NCBI GenBank assembly: GCA_050246755.1
Contig: JBFWVL010000001.1
Location: 1,198,486-1,262,485, forward strand
DNA length: 64,000 bases
Direction of reading: 5' to 3'
From: Bacteriovoracia bacterium
Lineage (GTDB): Bacteria > Bdellovibrionota > UBA1018 > CAIPTA01
Below, one piece after another: positions 10,523-64,000 of the stretch. Within the stretch, counting starts at the first letter, position 1, and each line of letters starts with the position of its first letter. The notes beneath the pieces were generated by a model. The model was not told where the DNA came from. It saw nothing but the letters and a program-made list of their open reading frames with translations, and did no database searches. The position numbers and the translations under genes were made by a program.

Positions 10523-10534
10523 GGAGGGTTAAAA

Positions 10535-40182: not shown

Positions 40183-40191
40183 GTAGCTCTC

Positions 40192-42132: not shown

Positions 42133-42142
42133 GACGAAATCC

Positions 42143-42460
42143 TTATTGCTTCATCTGGTTCAGCTGCGCGGTGCCCACTTCACGTAAGTTCCGATAGAGC
42201 GCAATTAAGAGGCCTAATCCGATCGCGCCCTCGGCGGCGGCCACGGTCACGATAAAAAACACCATGAGCTGGCCGTTCATATCTTGATTTAAGCGGGAAA
42301 AGGTCACGAGGGTGAGGTTCACGGCCGTGAGCATTAGCTCGATGCACATTAAAACCGCGATGAGGGAGCGGCGAAGCATAATGCCCGTAAGCCCAATCGC
42401 AAACAAGGCCGCGCCCGTTATTAGCGCTGGAAAAATCATGGGGTCCGCTAAGTGATGCAT
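42143..42460 (-). CDS. nuoK: NADH-quinone oxidoreductase subunit K
   Basis: 105 aa, three helices, conserved Glu in CIELMLTAVN and VAAAEGAIGL. Confidence 0.85.
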   Translation of the reverse strand: MHHLADPMIFPALITGAALFAIGLTGIMLRRSLIAVLMCIELMLTAVNLTLVTFSRLNQDMNGQLMVFFIVTVAAAEGAIGLGLLIALYRNLREVGTAQLNQMKQ

Positions 42461-43439: not shown

Positions 43440-43448
43440 AAATTTTCC

Positions 43449-44552: not shown

Positions 44553-44555
44553 GAC

Positions 44556-45974: not shown

Positions 45975-45988
45975 TTTATTCCTTTAAT

Positions 45989-47278: not shown

Positions 47279-47751
47279 TAGCGGAACTCCTCAAGCACTT
47301 TATCGAGCTGTTTCTCATCGAAATTCTCGTGGTAGTCGTCGTTGATCTGGCAAACCGGCGCCGTGCCGCAAGATCCGAGGCACTCCACTTCGGAAATAGT
47401 GAACATTCCATCCTTGGTGGTACCACCCAGAGAAACACCGCACTTCTTTTCCGCGCGGTGAATGAGGTCTTCGGAGCCGCGCAGCCAGCATGCGATGTTA
47501 TTGCAAAACTGGAGGTTATACTTGCCCACCGGCTTGGTGTGGAACATGTGATAAAACGTAACCACTTCTTTCACCCGCGTTTTCGGAATCGCGAGAAAAT
47601 CGGCCACATCTTGCATCGTATCGTCGGAGATCCAGCCGCGGTCTTTTTGGGCCGCATGCAGAGCCGGTAAGAGCATGGCTAGCTTATTGGGATACATTCC
47701 TTGAATGCGGTCCATCTCGGCGTAAAATTCGTTTCCAAATTTCTTTTCCAT
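47278..47751 (-). CDS. nuoE: NADH-quinone oxidoreductase subunit E (2Fe-2S)
   Basis: 157 aa; CNNIACW...CLGSCGTAPV thioredoxin-like 2Fe-2S motif. Confidence 0.9.
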   Translation of the reverse strand: MEKKFGNEFYAEMDRIQGMYPNKLAMLLPALHAAQKDRGWISDDTMQDVADFLAIPKTRVKEVVTFYHMFHTKPVGKYNLQFCNNIACWLRGSEDLIHRAEKKCGVSLGGTTKDGMFTISEVECLGSCGTAPVCQINDDYHENFDEKQLDKVLEEFR

Positions 47752-47752
47752 A

Positions 47753-48994
47753 TTAGCGGTCTAACTCCCCGGCAATAATATTCACGGAACCAATCACGGC
47801 GATCACGTCGCCCACGTTTTCACCCTTCACCATCTCGTCTACGGGCTGGAACATGAAGAAAGAGGGGGCGCGGATACGCAAGCGGTAGGCCTTGGGACCG
47901 CCGCGGCTGATCGCGTAGAAGCCCATTTCGCCATTTGGGCCCTCCATAGGGCAGTACGCTTCTCCTGGAGGAACATCGAAACCTTCCATGAAAAATTTGA
48001 AATGGTGGATCAAGGACTCCATCGAATTATAAACGCGTTCCTTTTCCGGAATCTTCACGCGTTTATCGTCGGCCCAGATTGGGCCTTTGGGCATTTTCTG
48101 CGCGATCTGGCGGAGCATGCGGATGGATTCGAAAATTTCCGCCATACGCACCAGATAGCGATCGTACACGTCGCCGCCCTTTGCCACCGGAACGTCGAAC
48201 TCCAGCTCGCGGTACGCAAGATAAGGGCGGTCCCTGCGTAGGTCGATATTTACGTTGGAAGCGCGGAGGCAAGGGCCCGTCATCGAGTAAGCGAGTGCCT
48301 GTTCGGCGGTGAAAACGCCCACACCGCGGGTACGATCCACCCAGATACGGTTGTTCGTGAGCAGCTTGTCGAGCTCCTTAAAACATCTTTCGGTTTCATC
48401 AAGCCAAGCGTTCAGACGGGGAATGAAGCCATCGGGCAAATCACCAGAAAGACCGCCCACGCGGGTATAGGTGGTGGTCAACCGTGACCCACAGAGACTT
48501 TCGATCAAACTATAAGCTTCTTCGCGCTGGTGGAATCCGATGAGAAAGTAGGTCATGGCGCCAAGGTCGAAGGCATTGATGCCCACGCAAATGATATGAT
48601 CAATGATCCGCGCCATTTCGCAAACCATCGTGCGAATCCACACGTTGCGCGGAGGAATCTCGATGCCCATGAGCTTCTCGATCGTGGTCACGTAGGCCAC
48701 GTTATTCTGCAGGGCCGAACAATAATTCAGGCGGTCCGTATAGGGAATAAACTTATGGTAGGTTTTCACCTCGCCGAGCTTTTCCATCCCGCGATGCAAA
48801 TAACCGATCTCACATTTGCTCTCCTCCACCACTTCGCCGTTGAGCCGGCAAACGATACGAAGCGTTCCGTGGGTCGCCGGATGCTGGGGACCGATATTGA
48901 TAAGCATCTGCGAACTCTCGAAGATATCGCCATTATCGTCGTCTTCGAAGGCATCGCCTTTTCTAGGGAGCTGGAGTCCGGTTAGTTTATCCAT
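47753..48994 (-). CDS. nuoD: NADH-quinone oxidoreductase subunit D
   Basis: 413 aa; NIGPQHPATHGTLRIV, IGYLHRGMEKL, YTDRLNY, C-terminal GSVNIIAGELDR. Confidence 0.92.
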   Translation of the reverse strand: MDKLTGLQLPRKGDAFEDDDNGDIFESSQMLINIGPQHPATHGTLRIVCRLNGEVVEESKCEIGYLHRGMEKLGEVKTYHKFIPYTDRLNYCSALQNNVAYVTTIEKLMGIEIPPRNVWIRTMVCEMARIIDHIICVGINAFDLGAMTYFLIGFHQREEAYSLIESLCGSRLTTTYTRVGGLSGDLPDGFIPRLNAWLDETERCFKELDKLLTNNRIWVDRTRGVGVFTAEQALAYSMTGPCLRASNVNIDLRRDRPYLAYRELEFDVPVAKGGDVYDRYLVRMAEIFESIRMLRQIAQKMPKGPIWADDKRVKIPEKERVYNSMESLIHHFKFFMEGFDVPPGEAYCPMEGPNGEMGFYAISRGGPKAYRLRIRAPSFFMFQPVDEMVKGENVGDVIAVIGSVNIIAGELDR

Positions 48995-49647
48995 TATTCA
49001 CGCTCCAATACGGTCTTGGCCGAGCCTGGAGAGCCGATTGTTTTTTCTTTACGCAGCTCGTGCCGCGACATTCTCTCCGCCGATGGATCAAGACCGAAGC
49101 TATCGGTGGATGCCGATCCCTCGAAGCGCTGGTAGCGCTTAATGGGATAGTCCTTACGCTGGGGATGCCCCACCCAGCGCTCGTCGAGCAGAATGCGGTG
49201 CAGGTGGGGATGGCCCGAAAATCTCACGCCGTACATATCGAACACCTCGCGCTCCAGCCAATTGGCGGCCCTCCAGATGCCCACCACCGAGGGAGTTTCT
49301 TCTTCTTCTCTCACCCGCACCTTAATACGGATGCGGTCGTGGTTCTGCAGGGAAAAAAGCTGGTACACCACCACGAAGCGGTGCGCCCCGCCGGGGTTCT
49401 TCAAAGTGCCGAGGCCGTAGTCCGCGATCTTATCCAGCGGAGGATTATCATCGTAAGCGGTGAGATCAGAAAGGAAGCTGTACTCGAGGCCCTCTTCCGT
49501 GCGGATCGACTGCAAAAATTCTACGATTTTTTCTTTGCGCACGAAAAAAATAGGATCATCGGTATTTTCCGATACTACTTCCTCAATGGCATCGCCGTAA
49601 CGGGCTTTGATCCTGTCGATTTTTTCCTTCGGAAAATCCATCTTCAT
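48994..49647 (-). CDS. nuoC: NADH-quinone oxidoreductase subunit C
   Basis: 217 aa; [24 protein letters not shown] signature. Confidence 0.9.
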
Positions 49648-50126
49648 TGCAGCATCGCCTTACTTTTTTTAATTTTTTCCTGGAGCCGCATCACGCCGTG
49701 AATCACGCCCTCAGGAGAGGGCGGGCAGCCGGGAATATAGATGTCCACCGGAATTACTTCATCCGCACCCTGCATAACACTGTAGGTATCGAAAATGCCG
49801 CCGGAAGAAGAACAAGCGCCCATTGCGATCACCCACTTAGGATCGGCCATTTGCTCATAGAGAGTCTTGAGCACGGGGCCCATCTTCTCCGTGATCGTGC
49901 CGGCGATGATCATCATATCGCTCTGACGAGGAGAAAAGCGCACCACCTCGGCGCCGAAACGCGCAAGATCGTAGTCGGCCGAAAGCGTGGCCATCATCTC
50001 GATTCCGCAGCAGCTCGTACCGAAAGGATAGGGCCAGAGAGAGTTGGCTCTCGCCCAATTTACAAAATCTTCCAGTCTAGTAGTTAAAACATCCGGTGCG
50101 CCGTCTTTTGGCATATCGCCCCCCAT
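49644..50126 (-). CDS. nuoB: NADH-quinone oxidoreductase subunit B (N2 cluster)
   Basis: 160 aa; [23 protein letters not shown] cysteine motifs. Confidence 0.92.
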
Positions 50127-50151
50127 TCAGGCCGCTTCTGCGGCCCAGAAA

Positions 50152-50514
50152 CTATTCCCACTCGAGCCCGCCGCGGCGCCATTCGTATAAAAAGGCCACG
50201 GTAATCATGGTCATGAAAAATAGCATTACGCCGAGGATGAAAAAGTTCACCCCGAGAAATTTCCGGTACGCGAGGGCCCACGGAAAGAGCAGGGCTACCT
50301 CCACATCGAATAATAGAAAAGAAAGTGCCACGAGATAGAAGCGAACCGAAAAACGCTTTCTCGCGTCTCCACTAGGAGGTACGCCGCATTCGTATACGGA
50401 ATTTTTGAATTTATTAGGTCGCTTTGGTCCCAAGAGAGCCGCGCCGAAAATTACGGCGAACGAGATGCCTAACCCCACGAGAAACAAAAGCAAAACCGGA
50501 AAATACCCGGACAT
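50152..50514 (-). CDS. nuoA: NADH-quinone oxidoreductase subunit A
   Basis: 120 aa; YECG motif and FDVEVALLFPW; AGGGGG-type RBS upstream of the ATG. Confidence 0.88.
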   Translation of the reverse strand: MSGYFPVLLLFLVGLGISFAVIFGAALLGPKRPNKFKNSVYECGVPPSGDARKRFSVRFYLVALSFLLFDVEVALLFPWALAYRKFLGVNFFILGVMLFFMTMITVAFLYEWRRGGLEWE

Positions 50515-50556
50515 GCTGCACCCCCTAATGTGTGCAAAAAATTTAGCATGTTGGAT

Positions 50557-52011
50557 TTATTTAAGAAAGACTTTTGCAGTTTCGAAAAGTAAGGCAAATA
50601 CCCGATGCCAAAGGAATCCAAGCGCGGCGAGAGCAACGATTGCGACGGCTAACGAGAGCCACTCCAACGCGCCGTACCGAAACAGAACAAGAGGCGCAGT
50701 GTTTGTCGACGACGAAGCGCGTTGGCGGAATAGTAAATCCGTTCCCACGCGAATGGAAATTAGCGAAAGGGTGGCCACCAGCAGTACTTCGGCCGCGAGG
50801 AAAAATAGGGATTTCTGTTCCATCATCGCCGCCAAAAGATTCAATGCCATGGGAAATCCAGGTAAACCAGGAATGCAAAGCGGGCTGGCGAGCGCCAATA
50901 ATAGCAATAACCCCGAAGAGCGAAACGTGCGCGCGGCACCGTAGACATCTTTTAAATTTTCGCCGCCGGCACTTTCTTGAAATCGTCCCCAGTTAAAACC
51001 CAAAAGACTGGTCCAAACAAAAACCGAGGCAAAAGCATAGGTAATGGAGGATGCACTAAGTACGGTCGGCAATGCACCGGCCACTAAAATGGCCGACCAC
51101 TGCGCGCCCACTAGGGCACTGAAAAGACGCTTTGAATTTTCCTGCGTGAGCGCCACTAGGGCCAGCCAAAAGCCACCGCTAAGCCCACAGAGCTGTAACG
51201 TGCGCAGTCCCTCGGAAACTTCCCCGGGCCGAGCCTTGCCAAAAACCTCCACTCCCATTTTCCACAAAGCGAGGGTAACCGTTCCCTGCCAGATCACGGA
51301 AAGGGTTACCACTACCGGCCAGGGCATTCCTTGGTCGCGATCCACGTGCGCAAAGTGAAATGGAAAGAGTCCGGCGGCCATCACGAAGGGCAGGCAAAGC
51401 GCAAACACCACGAGAAGCGCGCTGAGGGAATAAATCGATTGCGCGTGAAGAAAAGAAGAGATCACATCATAGTGAACGCCGCCGGCGACCACGGCCAGAG
51501 CCGTAGCCGCGCCAAACCCACCCGCCATTACCAGAGAAGCTTGAATCCAGTACTTCAAGACGGCTTCCCCTTCACCGCGACCCCGAAACGCCAGGCCGCC
51601 GAGGAAAAGAGATAACCACGATCCGCAAACCAGAAGGATAATCGAAAGGGTCATCTGTCGGGAAAGCAGCAAGAGATCACAAAGCATTACCAGCGTGGAA
51701 AGCAGGAAAAGAACTTCGTGTTTTCTTTTTGCGGGTAACTCTTTGGTGGCCACAACGCCGCGCCCCAGGAGAAGGGCCGCCACGAAAAGAGCCGCACGCG
51801 GCAAACGGAAAAGCGGTTGATCTTCCAGAAGCCCGAACCAGATTTGGGACTGATCGGCCGATTGGCCCACGGCCAAGGTTGCCATTGCCGCCAAAAATCC
51901 GAGGCTTGAAAGAAATTCAATCGCCGTGCGCGAGCGAGAACTGCGGTTAAAAAGCAGCGCCACTCCTTGCGCTAGCGTGGCTAATCCGACGACTAAAATC
52001 GATAAGGGCAT
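50557..52011 (-). CDS. Divergent complex I antiporter-like membrane subunit (NuoN-like)
   Basis: 484 aa polytopic protein; EAVLKYWIQASLVMAGGFGA and GLFPFHFAHVDRDQGMP align by eye with nuoN EASVKYFVMGGASAAIYLYG and AAPFHMWAPDVYEGAP, but charged residues differ. Confidence 0.65.
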   Translation of the reverse strand: MPLSILVVGLATLAQGVALLFNRSSRSRTAIEFLSSLGFLAAMATLAVGQSADQSQIWFGLLEDQPLFRLPRAALFVAALLLGRGVVATKELPAKRKHEVLFLLSTLVMLCDLLLLSRQMTLSIILLVCGSWLSLFLGGLAFRGRGEGEAVLKYWIQASLVMAGGFGAATALAVVAGGVHYDVISSFLHAQSIYSLSALLVVFALCLPFVMAAGLFPFHFAHVDRDQGMPWPVVVTLSVIWQGTVTLALWKMGVEVFGKARPGEVSEGLRTLQLCGLSGGFWLALVALTQENSKRLFSALVGAQWSAILVAGALPTVLSASSITYAFASVFVWTSLLGFNWGRFQESAGGENLKDVYGAARTFRSSGLLLLLALASPLCIPGLPGFPMALNLLAAMMEQKSLFFLAAEVLLVATLSLISIRVGTDLLFRQRASSSTNTAPLVLFRYGALEWLSLAVAIVALAALGFLWHRVFALLFETAKVFLK

Positions 52012-52023
52012 GCCGACCTCAAA

Positions 52024-53478
52024 CTAATTGCCATTTAATCCTTTCAGCAGGGCCGCCACCGATACTCCCATGGGCCCCAGAAGCAGGCTCGGCAAAACCC
52101 CTAAAACCAAAAGCACCAGACCAAGCGGTGCAATCGCAAGAATCTCTTCCCAAACCAAGTCGTGAAACTCTCCGCGATCTCCATCACCGGCCCCGGCGTC
52201 GAGACGAAAAAACATAATGCTCATCCCAGCAAAAGCAACCACCGGAACTGCTAGCGTAACCACGAGCAGCGGCCAGCTATGCACCCCGCTCAGCGACCAA
52301 ATAACGAAAAGTACCCCGTAGAATCCAATGGAAACCGGCAGAAAGAGCGCAAAAAGGGAGGCCGCCGCCGTGCTGAGCGCAAAGGCAGGAAATTCACGGA
52401 TTCTTTGGAGCGGTAAGGGGAATTTTCTTCTCTCGTGACAAGCAAGCACGAAGAGCATGAACGGAATAGAGAGCGTTTGGAAAAATAGGAGAATAAGAGA
52501 GCCGTGCCACCCTTTGGGATTTAAATTGAACAAGCCGATGGCGATGAACGAGCAAACGGTCTGCTGCAACCAAAATACGCGATCGCGCGCCTGGCGTGCG
52601 CCGAGAAAATTCAGCGCACAGTAAAGGGCGCCGATGGAGAAAAAGGCCAGAAGGTAATGGCCGAACCGCAAAAGCTCGCCGGGAAAAAGCTCCACCACGA
52701 AACGAGAGAGCAAAGTAAATCCCAGAAGCGGCTGCAGCGCTAGCGGCACCGCTTTTTCTACGGATTCCATTTCGAATATCCGGCGGGTGCTGCCGTGAAA
52801 GGGAAATATTCCGGCGCCGATCCCGAATGCCAGCAGCAATAATCCAAAGCCGATCGACCCCGGCAGTACCATATAGGTATCGCCCGATAGTCGGAACCAC
52901 TCCCCGATGGAACCACGGAATCCCTCCGAGAACGCCAGCACGCAAAGCAATAACGACAATGAAGCGATGGTAGAGAGAAAAGCCGCCTCGCGTACCGGCT
53001 CAATGCGATTTTCCTTTGCGTCTACCCCGGAAAATATAAATCGGGGGAGTAATGCGCCGGCAAAGAAAACAGAGAAAAGCAAAAGGTGATCAGCGCCTAG
53101 GGCACCGAGCACACAAGTCAAGTAGGCGGAAAGGCTGGCTACCGAGGCGCGGGATTTCTCGAGCATTCCCCTCGCCAGAAAGTGATAGCAAACGGTTACG
53201 GAAGAGACCGCTAGCGCCAATATTCCCGAATGAAATACCCAGCGGAGGCCCGTGTGATTCGACCAAGCGCTCTGGGCGAGAATCGCCGGAGAAAGCACGC
53301 TTCCGGCGTATTCGTTGGGCGAATAGAAGCCGATGGCCAAAAACAGAAAACAAACCCAAGAGAGAAGGTGCACCAACAACGAAAATGCCCAGAGCTTCTT
53401 CCCGCGCACGGGACCGCAAGCCGCCACCGTGACGAGCAGAGGCAAAAACGTAGCGATTAGTCCCGCCCAGCCTTTCAC
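52024..53478 (-). CDS. Divergent complex I antiporter-like membrane subunit (NuoM-like)
   Basis: ORF 52024..53520; start possibly GTG 53478 overlapping the upstream stop (GTGA). GIGAGIFPFHGSTRRIF aligns with nuoM AIKVPLFPLHTWLPDAH; polytopic. Confidence 0.6.
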   Translation of the reverse strand: MKGWAGLIATFLPLLVTVAACGPVRGKKLWAFSLLVHLLSWVCFLFLAIGFYSPNEYAGSVLSPAILAQSAWSNHTGLRWVFHSGILALAVSSVTVCYHFLARGMLEKSRASVASLSAYLTCVLGALGADHLLLFSVFFAGALLPRFIFSGVDAKENRIEPVREAAFLSTIASLSLLLCVLAFSEGFRGSIGEWFRLSGDTYMVLPGSIGFGLLLLAFGIGAGIFPFHGSTRRIFEMESVEKAVPLALQPLLGFTLLSRFVVELFPGELLRFGHYLLAFFSIGALYCALNFLGARQARDRVFWLQQTVCSFIAIGLFNLNPKGWHGSLILLFFQTLSIPFMLFVLACHERRKFPLPLQRIREFPAFALSTAAASLFALFLPVSIGFYGVLFVIWSLSGVHSWPLLVVTLAVPVVAFAGMSIMFFRLDAGAGDGDRGEFHDLVWEEILAIAPLGLVLLVLGVLPSLLLGPMGVSVAALLKGLNGN

Positions 53479-54818
53479 AGGATCCCCCCGGCCAGCTGCG
53501 TGGCCACGACAATGAAACACATCAGGAAAACTCCATACCCAGCGAAAGCGGCCGGGGCCGACTCGAGAGAGGATTCCGCTCCCGGCTCAGGAGGACGATC
53601 ATCCACAAAAATTCTTCGGCAGATATGCACGTTGGCGCAGAAGTAAAAAAACCAAAGCAAGCCGAATACGATGCCGTAGCTGATACCGAGATCGAGGGAA
53701 CGAGCGCCGATCCCACTGAAAATCTGAAACACCGGGGTGCCGGGCACTCCGAGGATAAGCGCGAAAAGAATTCCCACGAAAACCTTCTGTAGCGGGCGCA
53801 CCACTTTGACCACCGAAGCATAAAGTACTAGCCCGGTGAATACTGGTACGAAGAGACAGGTAAAGTACGCGGATAGTACTAAGCTTGTCTTCGAGACTCC
53901 CACCGAAACCAAAATGAGCGAAAAGAAAAAACTCGGTAGGCTTCCCAGCATTTTTCGCCTGGATCCGGCCGCAAAAAGACCGCTGATAGAAAAGGCGCAG
54001 CCGGAGATTCCCAGTAGATACAAAGCCAGCTTCTGCTTCCACCCCATATCGGGATAAACCACAGAAAAAAGCGTGGATATCTTCAAGGCCACCGCGCTGA
54101 TGAAGGTAACCAAGGTAACGGTTACGCCTTCCGGAAGATTTTCCACCGCCATACTGAACCATCGGGACCATGGCGGAAGCGGAATCGAGAGCACTACAAG
54201 GCCCAGCCAGATAAATAAACCGAGCGAAGAACCGGAGCGGGGGCCGAATAGCATATCCTTCGCGCCGAATTCCACCACGCCCCATACAATCATCAGCAGT
54301 CCCAACAAGAAGTAGAGGCTATACATACGGCGGGAAATTCTATCTCCCATCTCACGACTGGCCCCGGCAATGGCAAAGCGAATTAGGTAGAAGAACACCG
54401 CCGCCGCCAGCAAAAGCAAACCCCCAGTAGCTACCGCGTTGTTAGAAATTATAAAAAGGCTGGTAAACGCCTGCGCCAGCGATAGCAGCACGCTTACCAC
54501 TCGCAGGCCGCCCGCCACCGCCCCCATCGCATGGGCAAAAAGAAAGCAGAGTTCTGCGGTGAGCAAAAAACCAAGCCGGAAAGAATCAAGCGAGAGCACG
54601 AATTCGAGCGGATAACCATCAGCAAGCGAGGTAGAAATTTCAATTACCGCTCCGCCAAATACAACCGGGCGTAAAAGCACGATGAGAAGTAGAGCGCGAA
54701 GGCTCGACGCGATGATCCCCGGGGAAACGAGCCTTTTGTGAAATGCATTCGGCAAAGGTATCGCGGCGGCGAAGGGCAAAACTATATACAGTAAGAATAT
54801 TAGCCGTTCTAAGCTCAT
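53475..54818 (-). CDS. Divergent complex I antiporter-like membrane subunit (additional NuoM/N-like paralog)
   Basis: 447 aa polytopic protein; IPLPPWSRWFSMAVENLPEG loosely aligns with the antiporter-like PLFPLHTWLPDAHVQAP region; 4-nt overlap with upstream gene. Confidence 0.55.
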   Translation of the reverse strand: MSLERLIFLLYIVLPFAAAIPLPNAFHKRLVSPGIIASSLRALLLIVLLRPVVFGGAVIEISTSLADGYPLEFVLSLDSFRLGFLLTAELCFLFAHAMGAVAGGLRVVSVLLSLAQAFTSLFIISNNAVATGGLLLLAAAVFFYLIRFAIAGASREMGDRISRRMYSLYFLLGLLMIVWGVVEFGAKDMLFGPRSGSSLGLFIWLGLVVLSIPLPPWSRWFSMAVENLPEGVTVTLVTFISAVALKISTLFSVVYPDMGWKQKLALYLLGISGCAFSISGLFAAGSRRKMLGSLPSFFFSLILVSVGVSKTSLVLSAYFTCLFVPVFTGLVLYASVVKVVRPLQKVFVGILFALILGVPGTPVFQIFSGIGARSLDLGISYGIVFGLLWFFYFCANVHICRRIFVDDRPPEPGAESSLESAPAAFAGYGVFLMCFIVVATQLAGGIL

Positions 54819-56563
54819 TTAGCCCCCAGGAGAAAGAGCACTCCGGCGAAAAGCGTGAGCACGGTTCCAAAAAACAAATAAAAGCGAATATTTCCGGAAT
54901 GAAGAAAACGCATCAGCCGAGAAAGCGAGGATCCGTAAGCGAGAAAACCACCCGGAAATTTCTCGGCAAAGAGCATCCGATCCGTCTCTTGCAGGGCACT
55001 GGCAGCGCGAATATTTATGGTTCCAGCTCTAAGCGCAATCCAGTCCATTCCTTTTTCGGGCGCAAGCACGGCCGCCTGATTCCAGCGGACAACCGCAGGA
55101 TCGATTCGCGGAAAAAGATCTTCCATTTTCTTTTCCTTATTGGCGCTCCAAATACTAAGGCGAGAATTAGCTCCAAGGAGCATACCCGCCAACCCTCCCA
55201 CCAGCAGGGCGGCCCCGCGCACTACAAGGGAAATATCGGATAAGAAATCTATCGGGAACTGAAGCAGCCCGGACAACCCATCGTAGGCCCGGAATAGAGC
55301 GGCCAGTTGAATCAGGATAACCAGTGACGCGGGCAAAACCGCGGAAGCGAAAGTAAAATTATTTTCCTTCTCTTTGTTCTGCCGCAGAGAACCCACCAAT
55401 GCCTTCACGGCCACCAGAGAAAGCAGAAAAGTGAGTATTCCCATGATGGCTATTTTCAAGATCGTTTCCCGATTCTCGGTATGCGCCGAAGGTACGCTCG
55501 TAAAAGGAACCACGCCGGAGATGATTCCCAGCAAAAACAGTGTGGCTAAGAATATGAGCGCCGTTCGCCACGCTTGGGCACTTTGGCGGGCGAAGCGGAG
55601 CAAAAGGCTTAGGGCGTAACAAGAAAGCAGGCCCATCGCTTCGAAGGCTCCCCAGCTTAATTCTTCCGGCTTTAAAGACGAGAAGCGCAGAAAGAGGATG
55701 TATCCAAAAATGCCGAATAACATCCAAAAGCTGGCGCTAAGCGTGGTGGAGGCGAGAAAAGACAAAGCCGAAAACAGTGCCGTGGCAACTGCAAATAGCG
55801 CCGAAAGCGGGATCCATAATTCGCCCGACATGTCCTCGTGGATAACTCTACCCAGCAGAAAAAAGGCCGTACCCGCCTGAATCAACGCGAGCGGAACATA
55901 GCGCCACTCGCTGAAATTATGCTTAGAAAGCATGAATGCCATCACGTAAAGCACCATGCCGAGCAGAACGACGGAGCTATTGGTAAAGAAGCTCGCCGCG
56001 GTGAGGCCGAGCATCGCGATCAATCCGAGAAATAAAAAACTATTTCGCTTAAAATAGGAAATTCTCTCGAGCTCGCCCTCTGTGCCGCCCATTTCTAGGC
56101 TGAAAGAATGCAAGAGGAAAACGGTGATTTCGATGAACATCAGCGAAAGGAGCGCGTTCTCGCTCAAGTAGGCGAGGGCCAGGAATAAGAACGAACCGCT
56201 TAGGAATAGAAAGCGCAGCGTACCCCTCGCGCCGCCGAAGGAAGAAGCGCCGTCGAACATGACCAAACCAAGCAAAACGGAGGCAGAAAGAAAAATCCAA
56301 ACGTACCGCACCCAATACATGAGTAACGACGGCTCAAAATAGCCGGAAGTGTCGGTGGAAAGGGGCAATAGAAATTCCATTTTCACCGGAAGCTCAAACT
56401 GAAAAATCCCGATTAGGGAGGCGAGCAGCATCGTGCCGAACAAAATAAGACCGCCACGCTTCTCGGAATCGGAACGGCGATCGCTCTTAAGCGCAAACAA
56501 AACCAGCGCCGCAAGCGGGGCGCAGAATATAAGCAGTGGCACTACGATATTCCCAAAATTCAT
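54815..56563 (-). CDS. Divergent complex I antiporter-like membrane subunit (NuoL-like by position and length)
   Basis: 582 aa polytopic protein immediately after the NuoK-like gene, with extended C-terminal region; canonical NuoL motifs not recognizable by eye. Confidence 0.55.
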   Translation of the reverse strand: MNFGNIVVPLLIFCAPLAALVLFALKSDRRSDSEKRGGLILFGTMLLASLIGIFQFELPVKMEFLLPLSTDTSGYFEPSLLMYWVRYVWIFLSASVLLGLVMFDGASSFGGARGTLRFLFLSGSFLFLALAYLSENALLSLMFIEITVFLLHSFSLEMGGTEGELERISYFKRNSFLFLGLIAMLGLTAASFFTNSSVVLLGMVLYVMAFMLSKHNFSEWRYVPLALIQAGTAFFLLGRVIHEDMSGELWIPLSALFAVATALFSALSFLASTTLSASFWMLFGIFGYILFLRFSSLKPEELSWGAFEAMGLLSCYALSLLLRFARQSAQAWRTALIFLATLFLLGIISGVVPFTSVPSAHTENRETILKIAIMGILTFLLSLVAVKALVGSLRQNKEKENNFTFASAVLPASLVILIQLAALFRAYDGLSGLLQFPIDFLSDISLVVRGAALLVGGLAGMLLGANSRLSIWSANKEKKMEDLFPRIDPAVVRWNQAAVLAPEKGMDWIALRAGTINIRAASALQETDRMLFAEKFPGGFLAYGSSLSRLMRFLHSGNIRFYLFFGTVLTLFAGVLFLLGAK

Positions 56564-56578
56564 CCGTTAAAACTCCAG

Positions 56579-56899
56579 CTAATGCCGCAAACTATCTTCT
56601 TCATCCACATCCAGCGTTCCGCGAAATCGGCTACAGCGGTGCAATACCAGCAGACCCACCGCCACGAGCGCGGGAACCATTCCCAATGCCACTAACGAGA
56701 GCACGATGAGATCTCCGCCGCCGGAAGAAAAATATTGCGAGAATAAAAATCCACATGCCACCACGGCCTTAAGTGCGGTGGCCTGACCCACCAGCCCCCA
56801 TGCCGCCACCCGGCGCAGCGCGATGGCCGAAAGGCCCGCCACAAATACGGCCAAGAGCAAGATCACGTTAATTTTGTTTGCCACCGAGGTTAAATCCAT
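56579..56899 (-). CDS. Divergent NuoK-like small membrane subunit
   Basis: Track ORF 56579..57289 overlaps the NuoJ-like gene in another frame; start taken at ATG 56899 (MDLTSVANKINVILLLAVFVAG...), giving 106 aa with three hydrophobic helices at the NuoK position. Confidence 0.55.
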   Translation of the reverse strand: MDLTSVANKINVILLLAVFVAGLSAIALRRVAAWGLVGQATALKAVVACGFLFSQYFSSGGGDLIVLSLVALGMVPALVAVGLLVLHRCSRFRGTLDVDEEDSLRH

Positions 56900-57393
56900 T
56901 ACCGCTCCCTCCGCACAAGGAAGAATCCTCCGGTAACGATTACGATCAGGAAAAGCAGCGGAATCACCGCTAGCAGCCAGTCGGAGGTCCAGATTTTTTC
57001 GTGGAGCAGAGACAAACTTGGCGCCGGCGTCACCCCCGGTGGCATCAACTCCTCGAGCTCCAAGATCGCCAGCGCGCCGGTGACCACCGAGCAAAGGCCT
57101 AGCCATAGGAAAAACAGGCGATACAGCCAATCGGCACGGCGATTGCGGGCCGGGCGCGCGGGAAGCAGTTCTTGGGTGCGAAAATAAAGATAAATAGCGA
57201 AATCGGCCGAAAGAAATACCGCAATCATCATAATCCCAAAGTATCCGCCACTCATGAGTTCTACGGCCGCGCCCAAGCCAATGGAGCAAAGAATAGATCC
57301 CCAGAGTAAACGTTCGGTGGAATCGGCGGTGATCGCCATAATCGCGGAAATCAATGCCAACGCCAAACAGCTGCCAACAAAAAATGAGATCAT
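56899..57393 (-). CDS. Divergent NuoJ-like membrane subunit
   Basis: 164 aa, hydrophobic helices, in the J position between the NuoI-like and NuoK-like genes. Confidence 0.55.
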   Translation of the reverse strand: MISFFVGSCLALALISAIMAITADSTERLLWGSILCSIGLGAAVELMSGGYFGIMMIAVFLSADFAIYLYFRTQELLPARPARNRRADWLYRLFFLWLGLCSVVTGALAILELEELMPPGVTPAPSLSLLHEKIWTSDWLLAVIPLLFLIVIVTGGFFLVRRER

Positions 57394-57863
57394 CGTCTCA
57401 CCTCGTAAGTACGAATACGGGTGATGTCTTTATCGCTCTTCTGGCCGCCACCACGAAATACGGCGATTAAATCTTTCGTGCTCTCGGTAACGATTTCAAA
57501 TTCTTTGGAATAGGAAAGGCTAGCCTCGGGACAGATCTCGATACAAACACCGCACGAAAAGCATTTTCCCAAATGAATATTGAATTCTTGCACGCGAATC
57601 GTACCGTCGCGCAGGTTCTCGGAAGTAAAATCAATTGCCTTCACCGGACAGGCCGGAACGCAAAGACCGCATCCACTGCACTTCGATAAATCATTGGTCA
57701 CGTAGCCCTTATAGCTAGTGAACATGTCTAATGGGGCCTTGGCGGACACTAGGTCTGGATACTTTTCCACGACGCTTTTGTAACGATGCTTCGTACGGCG
57801 CAGAAAGCCGAAATTGATTTTCAGCGTGCTCTTGAGGGCGTTAATTACCTGCCTGACCTTCAT
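57390..57863 (-). CDS. Divergent NuoI-like 2x[4Fe-4S] ferredoxin subunit
   Basis: ORF 57390..57911; start probably Met17 at 57863 (ATGA overlap with upstream stop); two CxxCxxCxxxCP motifs (CSGCGLCVPACP, CFSCGVCIEICP). Confidence 0.75.
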   Translation of the reverse strand: MKVRQVINALKSTLKINFGFLRRTKHRYKSVVEKYPDLVSAKAPLDMFTSYKGYVTNDLSKCSGCGLCVPACPVKAIDFTSENLRDGTIRVQEFNIHLGKCFSCGVCIEICPEASLSYSKEFEIVTESTKDLIAVFRGGGQKSDKDITRIRTYEVRR

Positions 57864-58795
57864 CCGCGCACCCCCACCCAAACGGCTTCGAGAAAGAATC
57901 CGATGAGACATAGACGCAATAGCCAGCGGGCCGCCAATTCACTGGCGTCGGCCGAGCGAATCTTAGGAAAACTAGCCTGCAGAAGGGTGAACACGAATAT
58001 TCCGGCCGCCACTTTCAGCGGAAAGAGAACTTTCACGATGAGCCCGCTGGCCCCTCCGCAAAAAACGTATACCCAGAAACAAATCAAAGAGAATACCCAC
58101 ATTTTCTGCACGAAAATCGTGATGTATTGCATCGAGTGATTGAGGCTCTGCTCATCTTGCAGCTGCACTGGACTTTCCGTGGCGAAAAGGAAAATGGAGC
58201 AGAAGGCGGTTATGCCGCAAAGGAAAAGACCCGGACTGCTCAGCAGCGCGTGATAGGGGAAATAAATCTGAAAATCCGAAATCGCGCTCAAGTTGAGCTG
58301 ACCCACCCTTAGGGTTACGGCGAAAACCGATAGCAGCAATCCCGAAACTCCCATCGCCCGAAGCAAAAGCCGGCGGCGGCGGTCGAAACGCTCGCGTGAA
58401 TCGGCGGTGGCATGCACCAGCAGCGCCTCTAAAGCGGCCGCGATCATCGGAAAAAGCAGCAGGAGTGGAAGATCAATTTGATCGCCGCCCTCCGGGTAAG
58501 TTACCGCCAGCAAAGCCAGCAGGAATACTATGGGAAGAATTCGCCAAACCAAGGAGGCGAGACGTATCCGAAACGGCAGGGCCAATAAATCCGCCGGCTT
58601 CTTTTTCCGGGTTTTCTGAAAATCTTTCCAGACCTGAAAAAAATCCGTTTGCCCATGCCGGCCGGGCCCGTCGCGATGCTGCACGCGAGCAGCGACGAAG
58701 CGTTCGCAAAAAAGAAGGAAGAAGGTTCCCCCAAAGAGAAAGAGTAGCGAGCCCACGAGCGCCGCCCCGGCGAGCAAGAAATCTAGCGCACTCAT
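57860..58795 (-). CDS. Divergent NuoH-like membrane subunit
   Basis: 311 aa; RVQHRDGPGRHGQTDFFQVWKDFQK aligns with NuoH RxGPNxVGxxGLLQxxADxxK; polytopic. Confidence 0.7.
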   Translation of the reverse strand: MSALDFLLAGAALVGSLLFLFGGTFFLLFCERFVAARVQHRDGPGRHGQTDFFQVWKDFQKTRKKKPADLLALPFRIRLASLVWRILPIVFLLALLAVTYPEGGDQIDLPLLLLFPMIAAALEALLVHATADSRERFDRRRRLLLRAMGVSGLLLSVFAVTLRVGQLNLSAISDFQIYFPYHALLSSPGLFLCGITAFCSIFLFATESPVQLQDEQSLNHSMQYITIFVQKMWVFSLICFWVYVFCGGASGLIVKVLFPLKVAAGIFVFTLLQASFPKIRSADASELAARWLLRLCLIGFFLEAVWVGVRG

Positions 58796-59868
58796 TTGTC
58801 TACCTCCGAAAAGGAGATATCGAGCGAATGAATCACGAGGAAAGCGTCTTCCGCGTGAATTCCGCGCAGCAGGCGCGGCAGCACCTGAACCGCCATAGCC
58901 GAAGGGCAGAAAAAACTTACTTGCGACGGCTGCGAACGGCCATCGGATTCAACCATCGCGTAGATAGCTCCGCGAGGGCCCTCCACGCCACAAACTGCTT
59001 TTCCGGGCGCCGGGCGCACGTCTAGACCCACCCGGATGCGGTGGTTACCCGAAGGAATATGGCGAAATACGGATTCGATGAGCTGAGCCGACTGCAAAAT
59101 TTCCCGCTTGCGAATGTGTGCGCGGTCGAACGCGTCTCCCAGATAATTCCTCGAGGTGTCTAGCATCATCTCTGTGCCACGATAAGCGCCGTAGGGGCGC
59201 GAAACCCGAAGATCGCAGTCCGCTAAGCCGCTCGCACGCGCGTTAGGACCAGTAATATTCCAATTTTTAACCATCGCCGCATCTAACTGGCCCAAACCCC
59301 GGGTGCGCTTTTCGAAAAACGGGTGCGTAAGGAGGGAGCTTTCTAGATCCGGCAAAAATTCTCTTAAGCTGGCCACGGCTTTTTCGATTTTAAAAAACCA
59401 TCCGTCGGTGGCGTCGCTGATCACTCCACCAAGGCAAATAGAGCCGAAACCAAGGCGCGAACCGCAATACATCTCAAATATATCCGCGAAGCGCTCGCGT
59501 TCCCGGAGGCAGTGATTCATGATCGCAGCCTGCCCGGCAGCCCTGGCCAAATTTCCGTAGTAATGAAGATGGCTGGCAATTCGGTTGAGCTCGAGCAGAA
59601 TTAGGCGAATCTGCTCAGACCGAGCCGAGATTTCTATGCGCAGCAAGTCTTCGCAGGCCGAGGCAAGAGCGAAATTGAAGGCCGGAGCCGCGAGATAATC
59701 GAGGCGATCCATGTAATTTAGGGCTTGGGCTAAAGGTAGCTGCAATGCGATCGCTTCCAGGCTACGGCGTCCATAACCCACGGTCATCCGGGCGTCGGCC
59801 ACTAAGCCACCGTCTTCTTCGAGCTTCAGCCCGAAAGCACCGATTCCCTGCGTTCCCGCAAGATACAT
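58792..59868 (-). CDS. Divergent NuoD-like (49-kDa-type) subunit; no NiFe-binding cysteine motifs
   Basis: ORF 58792..59967; start probably Met34 at 59868. LAGTQGIGAFGLKLEEDGGLV / VGYGRRSLEAI / YMDRLDY / HSLDISFSEVDK align with canonical nuoD GPQHPATHGTLRIV / IGYLHRGMEKL / YTDRLNY / GSVNIIAGELDR. No CxxC pairs at either terminus. Confidence 0.75.
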   Translation of the reverse strand: MYLAGTQGIGAFGLKLEEDGGLVADARMTVGYGRRSLEAIALQLPLAQALNYMDRLDYLAAPAFNFALASACEDLLRIEISARSEQIRLILLELNRIASHLHYYGNLARAAGQAAIMNHCLRERERFADIFEMYCGSRLGFGSICLGGVISDATDGWFFKIEKAVASLREFLPDLESSLLTHPFFEKRTRGLGQLDAAMVKNWNITGPNARASGLADCDLRVSRPYGAYRGTEMMLDTSRNYLGDAFDRAHIRKREILQSAQLIESVFRHIPSGNHRIRVGLDVRPAPGKAVCGVEGPRGAIYAMVESDGRSQPSQVSFFCPSAMAVQVLPRLLRGIHAEDAFLVIHSLDISFSEVDK

Positions 59869-59879
59869 AGGAGTATAAT

Positions 59880-60272
59880 CTAAAGTGGTCGCCACGTGGC
59901 GTCCCTTTCTGGAATCATGCCGGCGAACTCTACTCCGTTGAAAGTGCGTAGCTCTTCTTCCCACCAAAGACTAAACGGCCAGAGGGCGCTGGGGCGCGGA
60001 AAGGCCGAAGAAGGAGCAACTTCCAGAATAAAAAAGATCGGTTCATTTCCGCACGTAAGCAGCAGCTCGATGGAAAGATTCGTGCCCGCGCCGGCCGTCG
60101 ATAACCCATGCAAAGCGGGGCGTTCGCCAGAGGGTAGCGCGCCCCAATGCTCGAGCAATTTTGCCAGCTCCGAAGTTCCCGCCTGGACGCGAGAAACTTT
60201 ATCTCCGGCCGCAGGGGTGCCCGGCACCTTCACGATGCCTCCCCAAATATTTTTTTCTCCGCCTGATCTCAC
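59880..60272 (-). CDS. Divergent, shortened NuoC-like (30-kDa-type) subunit
   Basis: 130 aa; LWPFSLWWEEELRTFNGVEFAG aligns with canonical [22 protein letters not shown]. Confidence 0.6.
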   Translation of the reverse strand: MRSGGEKNIWGGIVKVPGTPAAGDKVSRVQAGTSELAKLLEHWGALPSGERPALHGLSTAGAGTNLSIELLLTCGNEPIFFILEVAPSSAFPRPSALWPFSLWWEEELRTFNGVEFAGMIPERDATWRPL

Positions 60273-60718
60273 GACGCGGACCTCCGGATTTTTTCCTGCA
60301 ATTTAATCAGCGCATGAATCAATGACTCCGGTCGTGGAGGACAGCCCGGAATAAAAAGATCCACGGGAATTATGGCCTCGAGACCCGGGATACGATGTTT
60401 TCCTTCGGCCGAAAACATTCCACCGGTGCTGGCGCAACTGCCAACGGCCACCACGAATTTTGGATCGCGCATCTCGGCGTAAATCTTTTTCAGTTCTTCG
60501 GCAATGCCGGGAGTTACCGGGCCTGAAACAAAGAGCACATCGGCGTTACGATGATCGGTCACAATCCGGCAACCGAGCCTCTCCCAATCGAATCTCGGTC
60601 CGGAAGCAGCTTCCACTTCCAGGGTACAGCAAGAAAGCCCCACATGATAAACCCATAACGAATCCGCGAGCGCGGATTTTGGCTGAGAGGGAGCGGATTC
60701 TTTTTGGATCTCCATCAT
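60269..60718 (-). CDS. Divergent NuoB-like (PSST-type) subunit with N2-cluster cysteines retained
   Basis: 149 aa; SCCTLEVEA, GSCASTGG, PGCPP: all four N2 cysteine ligands in canonical spacing. Confidence 0.8.
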   Translation of the reverse strand: MMEIQKESAPSQPKSALADSLWVYHVGLSCCTLEVEAASGPRFDWERLGCRIVTDHRNADVLFVSGPVTPGIAEELKKIYAEMRDPKFVVAVGSCASTGGMFSAEGKHRIPGLEAIIPVDLFIPGCPPRPESLIHALIKLQEKIRRSAS

Positions 60719-61137
60719 TGGTTTTCCTTATCGGGCCACTCGAGATTGTCTATCCACTTCAGGTAGCTTTTACGGCCGCCGTACCAAAGTAGGGCCAGCA
60801 TCAACGCGGGAAAAATCAAAACCTTTCCCATCACCAGCCAGCGGTCGTGCATTTCGAGGGAAACTATTTTTTGCCGGTACGAAGCCCACATCGGCAAAGA
60901 GAGTGCGATTCCGCACCAGAGCATTAGCAGCCAAAGAACGTGATAGAATGAACGGAACGCACCTTCCGGGGCGCCGTTCCCTGGCTCACGAATTCCCTGA
61001 ACCTTTTCGAGACGATCCCATAGCACGAGCACCAAAATGGCCACAAAAAGCAGCACTGCTGGAATTAAAAAGAGGAGAAATCTAGAATACATCTGCCGTC
61101 CTTGAGTTTCAGTGCCTCTTCCCACAGCCATATTCAC
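60715..61137 (-). CDS. Divergent NuoA-like small membrane subunit
   Basis: 140 aa (start ambiguous: GTG 61137, ATG 61131 or ATG 61092); three hydrophobic helices; C-terminal YLKWIDNLEW resembles NuoA YEWRRGGLEW. Confidence 0.5.
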   Translation of the reverse strand: MNMAVGRGTETQGRQMYSRFLLFLIPAVLLFVAILVLVLWDRLEKVQGIREPGNGAPEGAFRSFYHVLWLLMLWCGIALSLPMWASYRQKIVSLEMHDRWLVMGKVLIFPALMLALLWYGGRKSYLKWIDNLEWPDKENQ

Positions 61138-61251: not shown

Positions 61252-64000
61252 ATGTCGCAATCCGCCGGTAAAAAACAGTCCGCAGTTTCGCTCAACGGGC
61301 TTTCCCCGGCGGCCTTCGCTTATCTGCTTCCGGAACTTCTGAGCGAAGGCAATGAATTGCGGGCAGTTGTGCTCGTAAGCGATGAGAGCGCGGCGGACCA
61401 AGTTGCGGAAGATATCGCTTTTTTTGCGGACTTTCGGGGCGGTGCGTGGAAACACACTTCCTTGTTACGTTTGGGGGGGTGGGAGCAAAGCCCTTACCGA
61501 AACCTCCAGCCCGGTCTTTCCGCCCGGCTCGATCGCATCAAAGCGAGTCACTTTCTCGTTTCACCCAGCTCCAACCGAAACTGGATTCTGGTCAGCTCCG
61601 CCCGTTCATTTCTTCAGGCCGCCGCCACCCGCGAGCATTTAACCGAAACGGTTCAAGTGGGTAAGGGCATCGCTATTCATCCGGAAACCTTAGCCGCCCA
61701 ACTTACTAAAATAGGCTACACGAAAACCGAAAACGTAGAAGATCCCGGAAACTTCAGCGTGAGGGGCGGGATCGTGGATGTATTTCCCCCTTCGCTGGAA
61801 AATCCCGTGCGCCTTGAATTCTTCGATGAGGAAATCGAGTCCGTTCGCATATTCAATCCCGAAACTCAACGCAGCGTGCGCCTGCTTTCCGAAAAAGAAA
61901 CCGTAGAACTGATCCCGGTACGCGAGTTCACCTGCGATCCCCTGAGCCTCGCCGCGGCCAGAGAAACGATCAAGGAATGGTGTGATCAGCACGATCTCCC
62001 GCGGGCGGCAAGGGAAAGAATAGGCCTATTGCTGAGCCAAGGCGTGGCCACGCCCGAAATGGATTATTTGCTGCCCTTTTTCCGGAACGAGCAAACCTGG
62101 CCGGTCCAGCTTTTACCTCCCGGCGTAACCCTTTGCATTTTCGAGCCAGAAATCTTCCGCGAAACCGTGGCGGCCTGGCGGGAAAAAGAAGAAGAACTAT
62201 ATAAGAACAGTTTAGATAGGCAGCAGGTAGTTCCCGAGCCCGATCGATTGTTCATGCCGCTCAACACCGCGCTCGCCCCGGAACGCTGGAATAAAATTAT
62301 GGAAACCCGCGAGCTCGCCCTCGGCGAAGGTTCGCCGCGCTTCGAGCGCATCCGGCTGGGATCCAAGAAAAAAGCCACCGACATGCCGGGCCTCATGCGC
62401 ACCCTCACAAGTATGCGGGAGCGCGGCACCACCACGGTTATAGTGGCGAATTCTCAGTCGCAGCTCGATCGCGTACTTTTCCTGCTCAATCAAAGTAAAG
62501 TGCGCGCGGTGGCGGTGAAGGGTGAATTCGACCTGCCGAAAGATCCCTCGATCGTAGCCCTTGCGCTCGGCCAGCTCTCCGAGAGTTTTCACCTCCTCGA
62601 GAAAAAAATCGCTTTCCTTTCCGAAGACGAGATCTTCGGTGAAAAACAGCATATTCACCGGCCGGGACGTAAGCGTTCCGCGGCGCCCACCGTTACGATG
62701 GACGATCTCGTAGCGGGCGATATGGTGGTGCATATCGAGCACGGAATCGGACGTTACGTGGGGCTGGCGCGGGTAAAAGCGCTGGGCAATGAGGGCGATT
62801 TCGTTCAGCTGGAATATGCCGACGGCGATAAGCTTTATATTCCGGTTTACCGCCTCGAAGGCCTTTCCCGCTACGTGGGAACATCGGGCGAAAACGCATC
62901 GCTCGACCGCCTTGGCTCAGGCTCTTTCGCAAAAACGAAAGATAAAGTAAAAGCCGCGATCAAAGACATCGCCCAGGACTTGCTACGGGTACAGGCTGAG
63001 CGCGAGCTCCGCGAGGGTTACGCCTTTTCCTCTCCCGACGACGAATATCGCCGCTTTGAAGCCGAATTCCCTTTCGACGAAACGCCGGACCAGGCCAAAG
63101 CCATTCAGGAAACTATCGATGATATGACCGAAGGAAAGCCCATGGATCGTCTCGTATGCGGCGACGTGGGTTTTGGAAAAACGGAAGTGGCCATCCGGGC
63201 GGCGTTCAAGGCCGCCCAGGATGGGAAGCAGGTGGCGGTGCTGGTGCCCACCACGATCCTCGCCGAGCAGCACTACCTCACGTTCAGTCAAAGAATTTCT
63301 TCTTACCCCTTTAAGATCGCAAGTCTCTCTCGCTTCAAAACGCGCAAAGAACAAGCCGAGATCCTAGAAAATCTGGCGGCCGGAAAAATAGACATCGCGA
63401 TCGGAACGCATCGTTTGCTTTCCAAAGACGTAAAATTTAAAGAGCTCGGCCTCGTGATCATCGACGAAGAACAGCGCTTCGGCGTGGAGCACAAGGAAAA
63501 ATTAAAACAACTGAAGGCTACGACCGACGTGCTCACGCTCACGGCCACGCCCATTCCCCGCACCCTGCAGATGTCGCTGATGGGCTTAAAAGACGTGAGC
63601 ATCATCCGCACCCCGCCGGGCGATCGCCTTTCTATCAAAACCCACCTCGCTACTTTCGATCACGAACTGATCCGCGACGCGATTCGCACCGAGCTCAGCC
63701 GGGGCGGGCAAGTTTTTTTCATCCATAATCGCATACAAACCATTGGAAAAATGGAAGAGTTGCTTCAGCGGCTGGTGCCCGAGGCGAAATTCGTAGTGGC
63801 GCATGGCCAGATGGCCGAGGGACAGCTCGAGCGGGCCATGATCGGCTTTTATCAGAAAAAGTTCGACGTGCTGATCGCTACCGCCATTATCGAAAATGGT
63901 CTCGACGTGCCCAACGCGAACACGCTGATAGTAAATCGTGCCGATACCTTCGGCCTCTCGCAACTTTACCAAATCCGGGGCCGCGTGGGCCGCTCCCAGA
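61252..64000 (+). CDS. mfd: Transcription-repair coupling factor Mfd (N-terminal ~916 aa; runs off window end)
   Basis: Open frame from ATG 61252 to the window edge (absent from ORF track, no stop in window). Translation contains [37 protein letters not shown], helicase motif [16 protein letters not shown], and motif [11 protein letters not shown] at the window edge. Confidence 0.9.

Follow-up and report, generated by a model that had tools for sequence, protein, structure and literature searches.

A second, apparently degenerate set of complex I genes directly upstream of canonical nuoA-N in Bdellovibrionota

Directly upstream of its canonical nuoA-N operon, the genome of a Bacteriovoracia bacterium (GCA_050246755.1) carries a second set of complex I-like genes, nuo2, whose products appear to have lost nearly all the residues through which complex I works. 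The stretch analyzed here, called the window throughout, comprises 64,000 nucleotides (nt) of contig JBFWVL010000001.1 (forward-strand positions 1,198,486–1,262,485), and the coordinates below are those of the window. It holds two nuo-like gene sets in tandem, both on the minus strand, from 61137 down to 37113. The downstream set is canonical nuoA-N (nuo1; 14 genes, 37113–50514). The upstream set, nuo2 (61092–50557), has 12 genes, A', B', C', D', H', I', J', K', L', Ma', Mb', and N', and follows the gene order of complex I. It contains no NuoE, NuoF, or NuoG, and the single copy of nuoEFG is the one in the canonical operon. Our evidence is computational and drawn from metagenome-assembled genomes (MAGs); it points to Nuo2 as a lineage-specific, fast-evolving, EFG-less paralogue of respiratory complex I in Bdellovibrionota. 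We give roughly an even chance to the reading developed here, in which Nuo2 is catalytically degenerate and has a structural or regulatory role tied to the genuine complex I encoded beside it.

The gene that a preliminary, sequence-only reading of the window had singled out is D' (58792–59895), which encodes a NuoD-like protein of 367 amino acids (aa) and overlaps the end of C' by 16 nt. D' belongs to the Complex1_49kDa family (PF00346, E = 7e-49), and its scores lie under every NCBIfam NuoD cut-off (233.8 bits against 360 for the best, NF004739; 232.6 against 522 for NF008974). Its AlphaFold2 model has a predicted local distance difference test (pLDDT) value of 93.9 and superposes on 49-kDa/NuoD chains with template modeling scores (TM-scores) of 0.92–0.94. 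The protein is short, without the NuoD insertion, and aligns without interruption to the models FpoD and PRK12322. A profile of the D' family finds chloroplast NdhH as its best match among Protein Data Bank (PDB) sequences, and it scores NuoD/NdhH (256 and 248 bits) above MbhL/MbsL (200 and 197 bits). A protein deposited from the same MAG (P0001) is identical to D' over its 367 aa and is labelled "hypothetical." The sequence-only reading had begun the gene at ATG 59868. GTG 59895 is most likely the start instead, because it gives the length of P0001, because a ribosome-binding-like site (AAAGGGA) lies 7 nt upstream, because it supplies the N-terminus MATxLxYSP, which the family conserves and which is strand β1 in the model, and because the closest relative has the same GTG-started N-terminus. 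The first two of these points, together with the relative, led us to reject ATG 59868.

The loop between strands β1 and β2, which in canonical NuoD carries His34 and His38 (Thermus Nqo4 numbering), is remodeled in D'. Codons 8–21 (TPMYLAGTQGIGAF; 59833–59874) contain no histidine, and the model places a short helix at residues 9–15 between β1 (3–7) and β2 (22–28). From Pro9 to Gly19 the loop is three residues longer than its Nqo4 equivalent, Pro32 to Gly39. That both loop histidines are lost, as the sequence-only reading had proposed, holds under any alignment, since the first histidine of D' is H109 and residues 1–108 contain none. The residues that stand in their place depend on the method. 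A single-sequence phmmer alignment pairs Tyr11 with His34 and Gln16 with His38, whereas two other alignments, one of a 55-member family profile to Thermus Nqo4 and one made by L-INS-i with canonical and intermediate proteins included, both pair Gly14 with His34 and Ile18 with His38. The latter two run gap-free from Gly19 (Gly39) through the β2-β3 hairpin to Gly29 (Gly49), and their pairing replaces the by-eye one of His to Gly and His to Phe. We rejected Gly17 for His34 and Phe21 for His38, which demands a gap of 3–4 residues within strand β2 and is backed by no method.

Column counts over the same 55 members show the same loss throughout the family. Position 18, equivalent to His38, is Leu, Ile, Val, or Met in 48 members and His in none. 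Position 16, which phmmer matches to His38, is Gln in 24 and His in 11; position 11, its match for His34, is Tyr in the window protein and, among the 55, His in 18 and Gln in nine, with other residues in the rest. The tyrosine of the YMDRLDY motif, which the sequence-only reading had described as kept, is indeed present as Tyr67 (codon 59695–59697), the equivalent of Nqo4 Tyr87 adjoining the iron-sulfur (Fe-S) cluster N2, but the family does not conserve it: the position is Phe in 30 members, Tyr in 20, Cys in two, and Ala, Ser, or His in one each.

The conserved loss is, moreover, wider than that reading saw, with Asp139 and His169 gone as well. In the segment encoded by codons 119–150 (59446–59541), which includes the family-specific motif MYCGSRLGFG, Ala119 takes the place of Asp139, the partner of His38, and Gly149-Phe150 that of His169-His170. 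Position 119 is Val, Ala, Ser, Glu, Thr, Leu, or Cys across the 55 members and Asp in none, and position 149 (His169, near N2) is Gly in 46. All 55 share the quinone-ligand losses, which therefore are not due to chance. The canonical NuoD of the window (47753–48994) retains GPQHPATHG and DRLNY, with His34, His38, Tyr87, and Asp139. With His38, Asp139, and His169 replaced and the tyrosine dispensable in the family, the canonical quinone head-group site of D' is abolished.

Nor is this a NiFe site. The whole of D' contains no CxxC, its seven cysteines being scattered at positions 81, 129, 144, 154, 227, 302, and 330, and its C-terminus reads SLDISFSEVDK where hydrogenases carry DPCxxCxDR. Aligned with true hydrogenases, D' has DRLDYL opposite ERVCGICS and SLDISFSEVD opposite DPCFSC, so the absence of NiFe ligands reported from the sequence alone is upheld. 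For want of cysteine ligands, and given its lower profile scores, we also rejected membership of D' among the hydrogenases or MBS.

Degeneracy extends well beyond D'. According to a review (PMC8165549), the conserved coupling element of complex I, MBH, and MBS consists of the loop between transmembrane helices (TMs) 1 and 2 of NuoA, the β1-β2 loop of NuoD, and the TM5-6 loop of NuoH. All three are altered in Nuo2. A' (NuoA-like, 125 aa from MYSRF; 60715–61092, the open reading frame [ORF] reaching 61137) has no Pfam match and reads WCGI for FDVE. H' (NuoH-like, 311 aa; 57860–58795) keeps the TM1-2 loop motif and has lost that of the TM5-6 loop, PFDLxEGExEhVxGYxxEYxG being deleted or replaced (311 aa against 367 aa). 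Both NuoK glutamates are replaced in K' (NuoK-like, 106 aa; 56579–56899; PF00420, 27.7 bits), one by Gln and the other by Pro. Mb' (NuoM-like, 484 aa from GTG; 52024–53478, ORF reaching 53520) aligns to solved NuoM (E = 2e-31) with Ala for the TM5 Glu, Gly for the TM7 Lys, Leu for the TM8 Lys, and Val for the TM12 Glu. N' (NuoN-like, 484 aa; 50557–52011), aligned to solved NuoN (E = 3e-22), has lost three of the four key residues (TM5 Glu, TM7 Lys, and TM12 Lys); its Lys251, near the position of the TM8 Lys, is Lys in ten of 11 operons and invariant in an eight-row alignment.

The remaining membrane subunits are harder to place. J' (NuoJ position, 164 aa; 56899–57393) has no Pfam match and a conserved intramembrane Asp64. 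L' (NuoL position, 582 aa; 54815–56563) has an invariant Glu145 (FIEITVF), and its C-terminal RLMRFLHSGNIRFYL bears a weakly suggestive similarity to the NuoL lateral-helix/TM16 junction motif. Ma' (447 aa; 53475–54818), one of two genes at the M position, is an extra subunit and belongs to an orphan family: a search of 5.8 billion proteins gave 49 homologues, of which none has a Pfam domain and any that bear a source name are called "hypothetical." Neither L' nor Ma' has a Pfam match even at E ≤ 10, their family profiles match no PDB sequence, and profile-profile comparison with Mb' gives weak signals only (probability 9% for Ma' and 47% for L'). The AlphaFold2 model of Ma' (pLDDT 88.8) is related by Foldseek to the Mrp/NuoL-M-N-type antiporter fold (TM-scores 0.77–0.81 at 11%–17% identity). 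On the basis of this model, this branch would have gained in Ma' a fourth antiporter-like subunit. Possible remnants of pump residues are L' E145, Ma' K246, and N' K251. In sum, B', H', I', K', Mb', and N' are recognizable by sequence, D' (49-kDa) and Ma' (antiporter-like) by modeled fold, and six of the nuo2 products have no Pfam match.

In the window, the Fe-S ligands of Nuo2 have fared differently from the pump residues, all 12 cysteines for N2, N6a, and N6b being intact. B' (NuoB-like, 149 aa; 60269–60718) has the four N2 cysteines in the usual CC..C..C arrangement (C30 and C31, codons 60626–60631; C95, codon 60434–60436; C126, codon 60341–60343), and I' (NuoI-like, 157 aa from MKVRQV; 57390–57863, ORF reaching 57911) has both CxxCxxCxxxCP motifs. 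I' also has a conserved, family-specific C-terminal tail (RIRTYEVRR) and an N-terminal extension, neither of which is found in canonical NuoI, and which could be a docking element. C' (NuoC-like, 130 aa; 59880–60272) is truncated; it retains the WPxxxWxExE..G..F motif and is missing some 80 C-terminal residues.

Elsewhere in the family N2 itself is gone. Two to four of its four cysteines are replaced in 16 of 80 B' cluster representatives (CSCS, YSCS, FSCN, GDSN, and others), with examples at loci L002, L007, L022, and L023 and among proteins P0135–P0190. In the N2-less operons L002, L022, and L023, D' is still 56%–61% identical to the window protein. I' keeps all eight cysteines in every operon read, these three included; the L007 contig stops before I'. 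D' Arg64, which corresponds to Nqo4 Arg84 adjoining N2 (assigned by its position beside Asp66, the equivalent of Asp86), is Gln in L022 and L023, two of the four N2-less operons read. N2 is thus dispensable in part of the Nuo2 family.

None of this looks like decay. Compared with an 85%-identical relative (L017), the ratio of nonsynonymous to synonymous substitution rates (dN/dS) is 0.03–0.10 for eleven nuo2 genes and 0.20 for C', the least constrained; since dS is near saturation, these ratios are if anything overestimates. D', at 0.05, is among the more constrained of the 12, and the membrane subunits lie at 0.06–0.10. All 12 genes are under purifying selection.

We recovered 16 genome loci and further metagenome contigs. 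Wherever a record title names a taxon, the source is an uncultured MAG assigned to Bdellovibrionota, Oligoflexia, Bdellovibrionia, or Bacteriovoracia, apart from loci that matched merely canonical NuoD. The order mfd, nuo2, nuo1 is found at every locus with enough flanking sequence. The divergent mfd is usually preceded by two surA-like genes, and pdxA is also present there in the milder loci described below. The 10-kb flanks, searched at more than ten loci for donor or accessory genes linked to nuo2, contained only mfd, the surA-like genes, pdxA, and canonical nuo. Across loci, identity to the window is 80%–97% for canonical subunits (NuoB) and 23%–75% for nuo2 subunits.

The operons grade from a nearly canonical state with 11 genes into a fully degenerate one with 12, and His38 is absent throughout. 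At the mild end are L018, L019, and L020, each of 11 Pfam-recognizable genes and all without His38. When aligned, L018 and L019 still show the NuoH loop motif (complete in L018) and many of the pump residues; their D subunits also retain Tyr87, which that of L020 lacks. L015 and L016, again with 11 genes, are intermediate, and the 12-gene family of the window is the most degenerate. L021 has ten genes and no nuoC (A, B, D, H, I, J, K, L, M, and N, at 2270–10903 of that locus). Among the 150 nearest cluster representatives at 50% identity, 70 lack His38 (56 of these also lack Tyr87), 61 are canonical, and 17 are of NiFe type. In a neighbor-joining tree, which is rough and carries no support values, D' and three sampled milder forms fall in a clade of 47 sequences, all without His38, with no canonical or NiFe protein inside it.

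As far as its sequences allow us to judge, Nuo2 works like none of its characterized relatives. It shares with complex I (NuoA-N, including Thermus Nqo4 and the mitochondrial 49-kDa subunit) the order A-B-C-D-H-I-J-K-L-M-N, the D' fold, the NuoB-type N2 and NuoI-type 2x[4Fe-4S] motifs seen here, the sequence matches of Mb' and N' to solved NuoM and NuoN, and the modeled fold of Ma'. It departs from complex I in having no NuoEFG of its own, in its fourth antiporter-like subunit, and in a D' that scores below the NuoD cut-offs, where His38, Asp139, and His169 are replaced and Tyr87 is not conserved by the family. Nuo2 also lacks the NuoH TM5-6 loop, through deletion, and has lost the NuoA and NuoK acidic residues and the TM5 Glu, TM7 Lys, and TM12 Lys or Glu of the NuoM- and NuoN-like subunits.

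By a loose definition Nuo2 qualifies as an Ehr, a hydrogenase-related complex without NiFe ligands (PMC6349859, PMC4758237). Ehr likewise has a large-subunit homologue with neither NiFe cysteines nor quinone ligands, and antiporter-like membrane subunits. Unlike Ehr, Nuo2 has a D' that scores nearer NuoD/NdhH than MbhL/MbsL, a full complex I membrane arm with NuoA, NuoJ, and NuoK homologues rather than an Mrp-type module, and a place in tandem with a canonical nuo operon. It also differs in having lost its pump residues and, in a sub-clade, the proximal cluster, neither of which has to our knowledge been described for Ehr.

Cyanobacterial and chloroplast NDH-1 and archaeal Fpo resemble Nuo2 in their lack of NuoEFG and their short D subunit, and the chloroplast NdhH is the best PDB match of the D' profile. 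NDH-1 and Fpo keep the His/Tyr site for quinone (or methanophenazine), the coupling loops, and the pump residues, and they have dedicated donor-binding subunits; none of these is seen in Nuo2. Syntrophobacter fumaroxidans offers a closer parallel in gene content, with one nuoEFG set noted for two sets of the other 11 genes (PMC4453560), which share this single set of N-module genes. In Syntrophobacter each of the two encodes a typical clade E enzyme, and the pair has been proposed to be isozymes, whereas the second set here appears catalytically degenerate and is fixed in tandem upstream of the first. The searchable literature yielded no description of the Nuo2 paralogue, only general statements on Ehr and on paired nuo clusters: a Peredibacter genome paper mentions two nuo clusters in Bdellovibrionota and notes no degeneracy (PMC13147790).

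How might such a complex be used? The Nuo2 proteins would still assemble as a complex I-shaped membrane particle, given the complete subunit sets, the translational coupling of the genes, and the confident models of D' and Ma'. That particle would be incapable of reducing quinone at the canonical site or of pumping protons by the canonical route. Since a sub-clade has lost N2 and kept the operon, the role common to the family would be independent of electron delivery to the B'/D' interface, and the Fe-S clusters of I' would be retained mainly for folding and stability. If we must commit ourselves, our guess is that Nuo2 is a non-catalytic or vestigially redox-active membrane partner of genuine complex I. 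The more specific proposal of a "pseudo-complex I," which neither reduces quinone nor pumps and serves the downstream-encoded complex I as scaffold, assembly platform, or sensor partner, we put forward only tentatively and think somewhat doubtful.

Several observations weigh against a degenerate Nuo2. Conserved charges, though sparse, persist within the membrane (E135 and E145 in L'; E89, K246, and R147 in Ma'; K251 in N'; D64 in J'; K44 in K'; E123, K261, and E303 in H') and may leave a non-canonical ion path; residue assignments in the divergent membrane subunits come from profile alignments and one model, and those for L' and Ma' are tentative. In the milder operons L018 and L019, from related MAGs, many pump residues survive along with the NuoH loop, and the ancestral Nuo2 was probably a working enzyme. 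With four N2 cysteines in the window B' and eight cysteines in I' of all operons seen, this organism may have an electron path to the D' pocket. Around the former site, stretches of D' show strong conservation (R44, D66, C144, S146, and R147), as would be expected equally of a functional pocket and of a structural core.

A different account is close to the altered or non-quinone acceptor site that the sequence-only reading had favored. Nuo2 would then still be a redox enzyme here, passing electrons from ferredoxin or a similar donor, or from shared NuoEFG, through I' and N2 to a non-quinone or unusually bound acceptor in the D'/B'/H' pocket, with little or no energy conservation. Because the Fe-S ligands of this organism are all intact, such a site is a serious rival in this organism, and it gains from the low dN/dS of D' (0.05), from new conserved residues near the old site (C144, C154, and Gln or His at 16), and from the precedents of MBH and MBS, with their other acceptors, and of NiFe-less Ehr (PMC8165549, PMC6349859). 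What stands of the earlier proposal is that the canonical quinone site is gone and is not of NiFe type. The change, however, is not confined to the pocket: partner subunits are degenerate too, and N2 is lost in the 16 of 80 B' representatives, in sister operons that keep the conservation of D'. Candidate ligand positions 11, 16, 18, and 67 are all variable in the family, no linked donor or accessory gene occurs at any locus examined, and neither the three-loop coupling system nor the pump residues survive. We therefore rank a degenerate complex with a structural or regulatory role above an altered acceptor site and consider the latter, on balance, unlikely. Less probable still is an alternative NADH:quinone or ferredoxin:quinone isozyme that borrows NuoEFG, binds quinone through Tyr67 and Gln16, and acts as a non-pumping NADH valve. 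In its favor, Tyr67 is present, 35 of 55 members have Gln or His at position 16, genes so placed in tandem are likely to be co-expressed with NuoEFG, and a single nuoEFG for two sets of other genes recalls S. fumaroxidans (PMC4453560). Against this, 35 of the 55 have Phe, Cys, Ala, Ser, or His in place of the tyrosine, positions 11 and 16 are not conserved, Asp139 and His169 are lost, N2 is missing from a sub-clade, and C', truncated here and absent in L021, argues against the docking of a full N-module.

A transporter or channel independent of redox chemistry, analogous to Mrp and using the new charged residues, seems to us about as improbable as the isozyme. Selection constrains the membrane subunits (dN/dS 0.06–0.10) no less than the peripheral ones, charges conserved within hydrophobic segments occur all along the arm, and N2 can be dispensed with in a sub-clade, all of which such a transporter would accommodate. 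The Glu and Lys residues common to Mrp antiporters and complex I, however, are exactly those that Mb' and N' have lost, and Nuo2 keeps the full peripheral arm with the eight invariant Fe-S cysteines of I', for which a pure transporter would have no use. That nuo2 is a decaying duplicate made up of pseudogenes, or an artefact of MAG assembly or annotation, might be suspected from its extreme divergence from the canonical subunits, from the six products that Pfam fails to match, and from the "hypothetical" label of P0001. We reject this as scarcely credible, in view of dN/dS values of 0.03–0.2, of 12 intact ORFs with the 1–4-nt overlaps typical of translational coupling, and of the operon's recurrence across many samples, on independent contigs as well as within one of 1.9 Mb; the two confident AlphaFold models also speak against it.

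Neighboring nuo2 genes mostly overlap by 1–4 nt, and canonical nuoA-N begins 42 nt past the stop codon of N'. A scan of this gap found no promoter-like site and no convincing terminator, on which basis nuo2 is probably co-transcribed with canonical nuoA-N; a promoter and terminator scan upstream of A' gave nothing usable. On the far side of A', mfd (transcription-repair coupling factor; 61252–64000, plus strand) is transcribed divergently from nuo2, runs off the window, and serves as the conserved synteny anchor. The plus-strand AT skew is 0.25–0.37 across the Nuo2 membrane-arm genes (50000–58000), exceeding that of the canonical nuo membrane genes. In the canonical operon, NuoG (44556–45974, minus strand) has just 472 aa, with complete N-terminal Fe-S domains and a remnant of about 50 residues of the molybdopterin-like domain. 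Genes for a PAS-type histidine kinase and a single-domain response regulator (34796–37116, plus strand) converge on the end of canonical nuoN, the gene ends overlapping by 4 nt (37113–37116). A flagellar group (fliD-like, fliS, and neighbors) followed by a TPR protein occupies 29361–32612 on the plus strand, as read from translations only.

The coupling mechanism of complex I is still debated, and the argument rests on a set of residues considered essential, namely His38, Tyr87, and Asp139, those of the three loops that surround N2, and the chain of Glu and Lys residues along the membrane arm. Nuo2 is a full-size paralogue from which almost all of these have been removed and which has nonetheless long been under purifying selection. 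Its graded series separates the structural from the catalytic features of the complex I architecture, and supplies structural work with a natural, ordered set of losses of function. Nuo2 also suggests that a respiratory complex may be retained whole as a pseudoenzyme; if true, it would be the first case of an entire multi-subunit respiratory complex turned non-catalytic paralogue. At present the genes carry such annotations as NuoB or NuoD, or are called "hypothetical," and metabolic reconstructions from Bdellovibrionota MAGs may therefore be counting a second complex I that is unable to function as one.

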